64,000 nt of DNA from the NCBI GenBank assembly GCA_027339965.1, contig DAHWNL010000034.1, positions 1-64,000 on the forward strand, read 5' to 3'. Position 1 is the first letter of the stretch; the number at the start of each line of letters is the position of its first letter. The position numbers were made by a program, and so were the translations under genes. This DNA comes from Granulicella sp. Lineage in GTDB: Bacteria; Acidobacteriota; Terriglobia; Terriglobales; Acidobacteriaceae. A model generated the notes under the pieces. It searched no databases and was not told the origin of the DNA. It saw only the letters and a list, made by a program, of their open reading frames with translations. Of this stretch, positions 2,319 through 3,554 are shown piece after piece.

Positions 2319-3128
2319 TCAAGACCGAAGATCTGGGCGATTCGCCTGCTGCACCATCTCCATCAGCATCTGCCGGGTCTGCTGAGCGTTGGCCACCTCA
2401 CGGGGAAAGTTGATCCGCTGGCCTTTGATTCCTTCCGGCGTCTTCAGACGGAGGGTAAAGCCCAATCGGTCCACTGATGTCATCGCAGCCTCGCTTGCCT
2501 CAATCCCGGAGCAGGCGCGCGCCAGTAGCAGCATTGAGCCAACATGATCGGAGTTCATATGCGCCAGAATAGCGGGAGCTGATTGCATGAGCGGATCCGC
2601 AGAGGCACTCGCGTATTCAGCTGGGTCCACCCAGCCCATCACGCCAAACCCTCCCACATAGTAAAGATCCACCGGTTCCAGGCGAAAGAACCGGAAGTCC
2701 GCGAAGTCTACCCAATGGCGGCTGTTCGGGTGCCGGGTAAGATAATCCTCGCGCACTGCGGCTCTTTGCTCTCCGGTCAGCTCGGCGGCTTTGCCCAGCA
2801 AGGTAGCCCGCGCAGCTCCCAGGGGGTCACCGTCCTCTGCTGGCTGGGTCACAAACAGGCTACACCGCGGATTCTGGTGCAGATTCTGTGTATGCATGGC
2901 CATGCTGCTGATCAAAACCACCGGCCGGCCTTGGGCGTCGAGCGCAAACGGCATCAGGGATCCAAAGGGAAACCCCGCGTGCTTGCGCGAGACCGTAGAG
3001 AGCATTCCTATACTCACCAGAGAGAGCAGCGTGCGGCTGCGCTCGGCGTAGCCGGGTTCGGGGGGCTGGGGTCTGGTCCATTCAGAGGAAGCATGCTGAC
3101 GTGGCGCGGAGTCATGAGCAGACGGCAT
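2319..3128 (-). CDS. HugZ/GluBP-like protein: N-terminal pyridoxamine-5'-phosphate-oxidase-like split barrel plus C-terminal DUF2470
   Basis: LSTVS..GFPFGS...ISSMAMHTQNL..NPRCSL (PNPOx-like); ILAHMNSDH and VDRLGF (DUF2470). Confidence 0.8.
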   Translation of the reverse strand: MPSAHDSAPRQHASSEWTRPQPPEPGYAERSRTLLSLVSIGMLSTVSRKHAGFPFGSLMPFALDAQGRPVVLISSMAMHTQNLHQNPRCSLFVTQPAEDGDPLGAARATLLGKAAELTGEQRAAVREDYLTRHPNSRHWVDFADFRFFRLEPVDLYYVGGFGVMGWVDPAEYASASADPLMQSAPAILAHMNSDHVGSMLLLARACSGIEASEAAMTSVDRLGFTLRLKTPEGIKGQRINFPREVANAQQTRQMLMEMVQQANRPDLRS

Positions 3129-3476
3129 AACAACATCCTCTCACTGTCGTGGAGTCAAGATCCAGAGTTATGCTTTATCCACCGTTATGCTGCCTGCGCT
3201 TTCTCCCGTTGCGGCTATAGATGCGGGCTCAACCACCTTAAGACCGGCTTTGACTCGGGGCCCAAGCATCCCGGCTGCAAACTCCAAAACGAGATACATC
3301 TCTCCCGATATTTCACAGAGCCGGTCTTATCCTCAGCCTTCGGCCCCTTGCAAATTGCACCGGGGTCCGTAAGACTTGAGAAGACAACCTGATTTCAGCC
3401 ATCACGGTCTCGCGTCTTTCGGCAGCCATGAAGGGTATCTCATCGCTGCTCGAGAATCAGCACCGATAGCTGAAAT

Positions 3477-3554
3477 GTCCCCGTCGTCTAGAGGCCCAGG
3501 ACGACATCACACTCATGGTGTAAACACGCGGTTCGAATCCCGTCGGGGACGCCA
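3477..3554 (+). tRNA. Non-canonical tRNA-Glu-like gene (CTC within an 8-nt anticodon loop); pseudo-tRNA or specialised tRNA
   Basis: Acceptor stem GTCCCCG/CGGGGAC, Glu-type D arm GTCTAGAGGCCCAGGAC, T-loop TTCGAAT, 3' GCCA. Anticodon stem ACATC/GGTGT with loop ACACTCAT. T-stem ACGCGG/CCCGT carries one extra base. Total 78 nt. Confidence 0.8.

Follow-up and report, generated by a model that had tools for sequence, protein, structure and literature searches.

A conserved, apparently undescribed class of tRNA-Glu with a rebuilt anticodon loop in Granulicella, two further bacterial lineages and phages

The first 64,000 nt of contig DAHWNL010000034.1 from Granulicella sp. (assembly GCA_027339965.1), here called the window, contain a 78-nt RNA gene that apparently belongs to a conserved and undescribed class of tRNA-Glu, with members in three bacterial lineages and in many phages, as far as sequence comparison can tell. 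The RNA resembles a non-proteinogenic tRNA and is a putative member of that group; of dedicated non-ribosomal tRNAs, few cases are known. The literature searched, which comprised main texts and few subscription papers, contained no account of this tRNA class. A single design turns up repeatedly, in three phyla and in many phages; ARAGORN misses it or leaves it unassigned, and the class points to an uncharacterised phage enzyme pair. The features discussed are compiled in Table 1.

Table 1. Features of the window and of the phage loci compared with it
Feature	Position	Strand	Remark
tRNA-Glu-derived RNA gene, 78 nt, CCA encoded	3477..3554	+	Rfam RF00005 36.3 bits; in 26 of 101 same-genus genomes
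8-nt anticodon loop: 32-38 pair plus 6-nt loop (C33, A33a, C34-U35-C36, A37); no U33	3509..3516	+	
Unpaired base 51a in T stem	3529..3529	+	C in window; C, T or A in relatives
HugZ/HOZ-type heme-binding protein (CREG/PNPOx + DUF2470)	2319..3128	-	Neighbour, not part of unit
Promoter-like motif TTGCAA-17 nt-nAGACT, ~100 nt before RNA	3348..3376	+	Putative function
5' leader of RNA	3383..3476	+	Too diverged for BLAST in window
Phage GNAT-like + M28-type peptidase module	L278-L356, L464-L490; KY940711.1 1727-4186; MT708545.1 1969-4557		

The original prediction had described a tRNA-Glu-like element of 78 nt with an 8-nt anticodon loop, no U33 and an extra T-stem base, and this description was borne out, the Rfam tRNA score of 36.3 bits comparing with a gathering score of 29. 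ARAGORN made no call at its default settings and returned tRNA-??? at a relaxed score. The RNA has a 7-bp acceptor stem with G1-C72 and U2-A71, a 4-bp D stem with U11-A24 and U13-G22, a 4-nt variable region in which residue 47 is absent, and a T loop; a 5-bp anticodon stem closes the enlarged loop, ACACTCAT. Because the first and last loop bases pair, the anticodon arm is better described as six stem pairs around a 6-nt loop, the innermost of them, 32-38, being A-U in 13 rows of the alignment, G-C in one relative and U-A in one outgroup. A CAU (Met/Ile) reading of the loop was ruled out, as stem covariation sets the register and one relative would give CAC. In the T stem, a single unpaired C directly follows pair 51-63. 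Measured against the GluRS determinants as listed in PMC9976931, the identity set is complete (G1-C72, U2-A71, U11-A24, U13-G22:A46, no residue 47, and Y34-U35-C36-A37), the first anticodon base being the C34 found in every Glu(CUC) instead of U34. The earlier view that the changes hit ribosome-side parts and spare the aminoacylation side holds, all GluRS identity elements being retained. Where a canonical elongator has a 7-nt loop with U33 and an unbroken 5-bp T stem, all 26 copies from the genus have an 8-nt loop with C33 and an unpaired base after pair 51-63. The three EF-Tu pairs of the window RNA are identical to those of canonical tRNA (calculated ΔG -10.8, in a model without a bulge term), so that its exclusion from EF-Tu would have to come from the bulge alone.

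The gene was found in 26 of 101 genomes of the same genus (Granulicella-type Acidobacteriaceae), always with 78 nt and both insertions; the named records are Granulicella or Acidobacteriaceae and include Granulicella paludicola DSM 22464 and Granulicella sp. L46. A second genome has the identical 78 nt between differing flanks, and over the 25 relatives the mean identity to the window RNA is 96% (minimum 91%), compared with 56% for the 40 nt upstream and 48% for the 40 nt downstream. All 22 base pairs are kept across 15 distinct rows (14 from the genus, one outgroup), and eight of the 22 have changed on both sides, with many of those changes contributed by the outgroup row. By this pattern of substitution the RNA is under purifying selection, and sequencing error and decay, which had originally been thought plausible, are refuted by the identical copy, the breadth of carriage and the kept pairs; the relatives do share the loop and T-stem anomalies (26 of 26 copies), with compensatory stem changes. 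A pseudogene, an assembly error or an attachment-site remnant would agree with the silence of ARAGORN and with the 3' end of the RNA, which is the same as that of the canonical Glu(UUC) gene, an end of which contig C50 has two duplicates at att-like sites. Almost no credence can be given to this explanation when the same two insertions recur in 26 genomes together with compensatory changes and a promoter-like motif, the design recurs in other phyla, and no loss is seen among the 22 closest relatives. These relatives were obtained by a ranking on HemA similarity, in which the 19 closest full-length relatives and three with partial HemA matches were all carriers, three further carriers being distant by this measure; the carrier and HemA tallies take in genomes flagged unpublished, namely G340 (a non-carrier) and nine order-level genomes, on which nothing else stated here depends. 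In a sample of the phylum, five of 401 genomes matched, four of them at chance level (five control hits). As to C50 itself, the two 3'-end copies of the canonical tRNA-Glu(UUC) (G000 C50:2871-2901 and C50:6791-6821) lie downstream of the gene at C50:14142-14216, as tandem integrated elements would leave them.

The promoter-like motif is present 96-148 nt upstream of the RNA in 20 of the 26 carrier loci; a consensus promoter scan returned nothing, the motif falling below that scan's rule. The leaders of several relatives retain a recognisable, decayed 3' part of a tRNA-Glu, which suggests an old tandem copy or an att remnant and, with it, an origin by tandem duplication. Metatranscriptome contigs from four of four runs contain the gene, two copies being identical over 78 nt with other flanks and two having three differences; presence on a contig does not demonstrate transcription. 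The commonest site in the genus has the atp operon end on one side and a convergent LacI gene on the other (each seen in 10 of 15 wide loci), and no enzyme-candidate neighbour is shared among these 15 loci.

The protein encoded next to the RNA in the window has a CREG/PNPOx_N domain followed by DUF2470, in the order first proposed. Full-length matches were obtained to HOZ1 (AT3G03890), MSMEG_6519 and PA4388 (PDB 6m09, 9bl1, 5bnc, 2arz; E 1e-45 to 1e-38), heme-binding proteins that are its closest solved relatives, whereas the plant GluTR-binding protein (4n7r_C, E 1e-15) is a distant one. A module of tRNA and HugZ/GluTR-binding protein was rejected: the HugZ-like gene adjoins the RNA in three of the 19 carriers possessing both (G000, G005, G337), was not found in seven of 26 carriers, two of these 99-100% complete, and occurs in 25 of the 75 genomes that lack the RNA. 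Neither adjacency nor co-occurrence of the two genes is conserved, and by these counts the HugZ-like gene is an incidental bystander.

The genome, 98.9% complete, contains a normal Glu(UUC) gene (C50:14142-14216) and a normal Glu(CUC) gene (C6:17672-17748), which answers in the affirmative the question raised at the outset whether canonical tRNA-Glu genes exist elsewhere; both types were found in four of four Granulicella-type carriers checked. It holds one GluRS, one HemA and one GluQ-like protein, the last label being our reading of a 300-aa protein that consists of the catalytic domain only. Searches of this genome for FemAB, FemAB-like, MprF, L/F-transferase, ATE_C and Acetyltransf_6 gave no match although their controls worked, LanB gave none with a control that was silent too, and the phage GNAT-like/peptidase pair described below had no homolog here by tblastn or HMM. 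The reading that we prefer, while giving it slightly less than an even chance, is that the RNA is a GluRS-charged, non-ribosomal donor of glutamate to an unrecognised enzyme. A third, spare tRNA-Glu gene would have been turned into a dedicated carrier, presumably transcribed from its own promoter and processed as a tRNA, and the product would be charged by the single GluRS of the cell, as the retention of every listed determinant leads one to expect. Codon reading is expected to suffer from the rebuilt loop, with its 32-38 pair, added base 33a and missing U33, and handling by EF-Tu or the ribosome from the 51a bulge; Glu-tRNA would thereby be kept available to an enzyme transferring or reducing its glutamyl group. 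As the phage pair was not found in this genome, the user here would be an unrecognised enzyme, with HemA as the sole known candidate present.

HemA brings in the C5 tetrapyrrole pathway, for which the RNA might be reserved if it were charged by GluRS, kept from EF-Tu and reduced by HemA. GluTR reads the tRNA core at U13-G22, and U13 is retained in 23 of 26 genus copies, which thus have U13-G22, unlike the Glu(UUC) of this genome with its C13-G22. Among known non-ribosomal users of Glu-tRNA, HemA alone was found here, and two of two other bacterial carriers tested have it as well. It competes with EF-Tu for Glu-tRNA, as described in PMC4284751. This role is nevertheless unlikely, given that the RNA never stands beside hem genes in the loci examined, that HemA occurs in 53 of 53 near-complete genus genomes, most of them without the RNA, and that the class is present in Bradyrhizobium phage BDU-MI-1. 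Alphaproteobacteria use the Shemin route (PMC4284751), so that heme supply cannot explain phage copies of the BDU-MI-1 type. Of the suggestion that the tRNA serves heme synthesis, what survives is the possibility in this genome; as the job of the whole class it falls. In Acidithiobacillus, several tRNA-Glu species have different fates, split between GluTR and EF-Tu, and PMC4284751 assigns one of them to translation only, of which a heme-only tRNA would be the reverse case.

Beyond the genus, the same design was met in Armatimonadota, Anaeromyxobacteraceae and many phages. It combines the 32-38 pair, a base added on the 5' side of the anticodon, which stays intact as Y-U-C, frequent loss of U33, a bulged or weak EF-Tu-binding stem and retained GluRS identity elements. 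A pattern for both insertions matched in large phages, a pattern search of GTDB gave 32 matches, among them an armatimonad and an Anaeromyxobacteraceae genome, and viral and metagenome scans added many further members; six of the 32 (L078, L080, L086, L097, L103, L108) were discarded as chance or non-tRNA. When 61 genomes related to the armatimonad were compared, 30 matched, all 30 loci with the 8-nt loop and the 51a bulge; the copy keeps U33 in the seven Armatimonadota genomes, of eight checked, that yielded no canonical Glu(CUC) gene by pattern. At one armatimonad locus (L087:4193-5713) the RNA lies ~1.1 kb upstream of a GluRS gene and has a UUC-type loop, unlike its relatives. The best 30 loci of Anaeromyxobacteraceae include 11 with an 8-nt loop (eight bulged, three not) and others with a 7-nt Glu(CUC) orthologue at the same tandem position, a series from 7-nt through 8-nt to 8-nt with bulge that suggests a stepwise origin; canonical UUC and CUC genes accompany the RNA in six of six bulged carriers checked. 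The acceptor stems differ among the three lineages and, on this character, independent origins are likely.

Read as a trend and without a p-value, since the sets were chosen by pattern and contain relatives, the class-level counts are as follows: positions 32 and 38 pair in 67 of 73 distinct 8-nt cores (two of them not genuine and a few ambiguous) but in only 4 of 46 controls with a 7-nt loop. C33 occurs in 44 of the 73, whereas 43 of the 46 controls have U33, and base 33a varies (T35, C20, A17, G1). These numbers overstate independence, because the patterns were refined after matches had been seen, the metagenome pattern forced Y32/R38 and the rows are related; the part of the loop fixed by the patterns is the GluRS determinant set, and some members have G37. 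Non-bulged 8-nt cores have a weak 51-63 pair in 41 of 47 cases, and their EF-Tu ΔG, calculated with the values of PMC3239215 Table 2, is -9.3 (n=44) versus -10.7 kcal/mol (n=21). About half of 28 'loop-only' viral loci were excluded, since they proved to be ordinary tRNAs with a 7-nt loop whose linker is longer. T-stem insertions after position 49 or 50 occur in 20 of the 46 pattern-selected 7-nt rows. Many phage tRNA-Glu among L137-L170 combine a normal 7-nt loop with such an extra base, some of which can alternatively be read as a 5-nt variable loop. In another group of phage tRNA-Glu with a 7-nt loop (L109, L111, L113, L114, L116, L119, L122, L126, L128, L134), two bases separate the D and anticodon stems.

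A rival proposal is that the RNA is still ribosomal, reading GAG as a triplet through its enlarged loop or acting as a +1 frameshift (four-base) tRNA. Triplet decoding is possible with an enlarged loop, as described for yeast mitochondrial tRNA-Thr (PMC5009743, PMC3113583), which has a natural 8-nt anticodon loop like the window RNA and is a working decoder (PMC5009743); PMC5009743 also mentions phage tRNAs with non-standard loops. A ribosomal role would likewise suit the Anaeromyxobacteraceae series that begins with a 7-nt Glu(CUC), and the seven of eight Armatimonadota genomes in which a canonical Glu(CUC) gene was not found by pattern. Against the donor reading count also the 51a bulge of SelC* tRNA-Cys, which is active in opal suppression (PMC5389517), the T-stem insertions in 7-nt rows and the canonical EF-Tu pairs of the window RNA. 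Unlike the mitochondrial case, however, the window genome has normal decoders and its RNA lacks U33 and has an altered T stem. The loss of U33 extends to all 26 genus copies, alongside normal UUC and CUC genes where checked, the would-be fourth anticodon base varies (A or C in the genus, and also across the class), and T stems are weak or bulged class-wide, all of which renders continued decoding rather improbable. A natural frameshift tRNA or a heme-only tRNA would, if true, also be notable.

In phages, the most widely shared neighbour of the RNA is an M28-type peptidase gene preceded by that of a ~550-aa uncharacterised protein, in which a GNAT-like core is accompanied by an invariant S-C-M motif and a Cys-rich C-terminus. 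This protein has 2,398 relatives at 50% clustering, belongs to no Pfam family and is encoded in at least 168 stretches of 2.9 million contigs. Its model has a pLDDT of 93-97, and the core gives matches with Z 4-5.3 and rmsd 3-5 over 80-105 aligned positions; the Foldseek rows are headed by FemX, MprF-type and ATE1 proteins at E 0.2-0.6, which is below significance, and acetyltransferases fit equally well. A PDB sequence search with it gave nothing relevant, and the ESM Atlas yielded nothing beyond viral clusters without names and a PcfJ lead at 0.84. The GNAT-like protein served to select 79 viral loci; 71 have the peptidase, and a uniform detector found the 8-nt RNA within 8 kb in 10, four of which were known from the first scan, and none within that distance in the other 69, which counts against the donor reading. 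Among 25 loci picked by a linked DNA polymerase, a small control, none of the 23 without the gene pair carries the RNA. A collection-wide scan for the CUC form, with a pattern written after such loops had been seen, gave 27 loci on 23 contigs; 14 of these contigs have the GNAT-like gene no more than 10 kb away, in nearly every case together with the M28-type peptidase, one has the peptidase only, five are tRNA-like without either gene and three look like chance. The isolated Bradyrhizobium phage BDU-MI-1 carries the gene pair and, ~9 kb away on the circle, a bulged tRNA-Glu with an 8-nt loop, and Rhizobium phage Pasto has the pair among its early genes, where the 9 kb inspected carry no annotation of such a tRNA. 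For copies with UUC loops in large phages, a GNAT-like neighbour is mostly not detectable. At L186, L189, L192, L193 and related large-phage loci, the 8-nt-loop tRNA-Glu adjoins genes for a CYTH-domain protein, a phrog_3668 hydrolase, which we take to be Pth2-like, and ClpB/C.

Judged by gene neighbourhood and fold, the likely user of the non-ribosomal glutamate donor in phages would be the GNAT-fold protein, acting with the M28-type peptidase as writer and eraser of a glutamyl mark. In its widest form, which is possible and which we put forward with some reserve, the proposal is that the class is excluded from the ribosome and supplies tRNA-dependent glutamylation, that the phage writer and eraser add glutamate to, and remove it from, a target of host or phage origin at an early stage of infection, and that each of the three bacterial lineages acquired its chromosomal copy independently, for its own reaction or as a supply to HemA. 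Cultured carriers exist (the two named Granulicella strains and phage BDU-MI-1), so that the ideas on charging, EF-Tu, HemA and the transferase are directly testable. Donation of glutamate would not be needed if the RNA were a tRNA mimic, a decoy or regulator that binds GluRS or absorbs anticodon nucleases, toxins or the phage glutamyl transferase. Several copies of the 8-nt-loop RNA in some phages, the replacement of the D arm in several metagenome copies whose anticodon and T arms persist, and the failure to find an acceptor enzyme in the host genome would suit a mimic. The bacterial copies, however, have a full acceptor stem, CCA and core determinants, all unchanged, which fits charging, and no defence or toxin gene is common to the neighbourhoods of the bacterial loci examined; we consider a mimic doubtful.

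Compared with known systems, the closest parallels are the Staphylococcus tRNA-Gly(UCC) and the Helicobacter pylori tRNA-Glu(UUC), each likewise an extra gene beside a normal isoacceptor (PMC3239215); the function of the Helicobacter tRNA-Glu, with its weak EF-Tu binding, is left unassigned in that source. A T stem drawn away from EF-Tu binding is common to these tRNAs and the non-bulged members of the class. They are described there as T-stem sequence outliers, whereas here the loop has been rebuilt as well. The window copy differs from both in its 51a bulge amid otherwise strong pairs, and no Fem-type partner was found for it. A bulged 51a is shared with SelC* tRNA-Cys, 8/4 tRNA-Sec and the allo-tRNAs described by Mukai et al. 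(PMC5389517; PMC7609411), the last of which occur in Acidobacteria. According to these sources, such tRNAs have 8/4 or 9/3 structures, Sec-like D arms and Cys, Ser or Ala identity; the window RNA, in contrast, is 7/5 (7-bp acceptor, 5-bp bulged T stem), with Glu identity, a short variable loop and the 8-nt anticodon loop. Further departures were noted among phage and metagenome sequences. Two phage copies (L193:10511 and 11801) have a 9-nt loop with the 51a bulge, and at L219, L220, L221, L228, L252, L270 and L275 unrelated hairpins stand in place of the D arm. In this genome, hemA (L217:2082-3086) immediately follows the gene of a membrane protein that has, by eye, the look of CcsA-type cytochrome c assembly.
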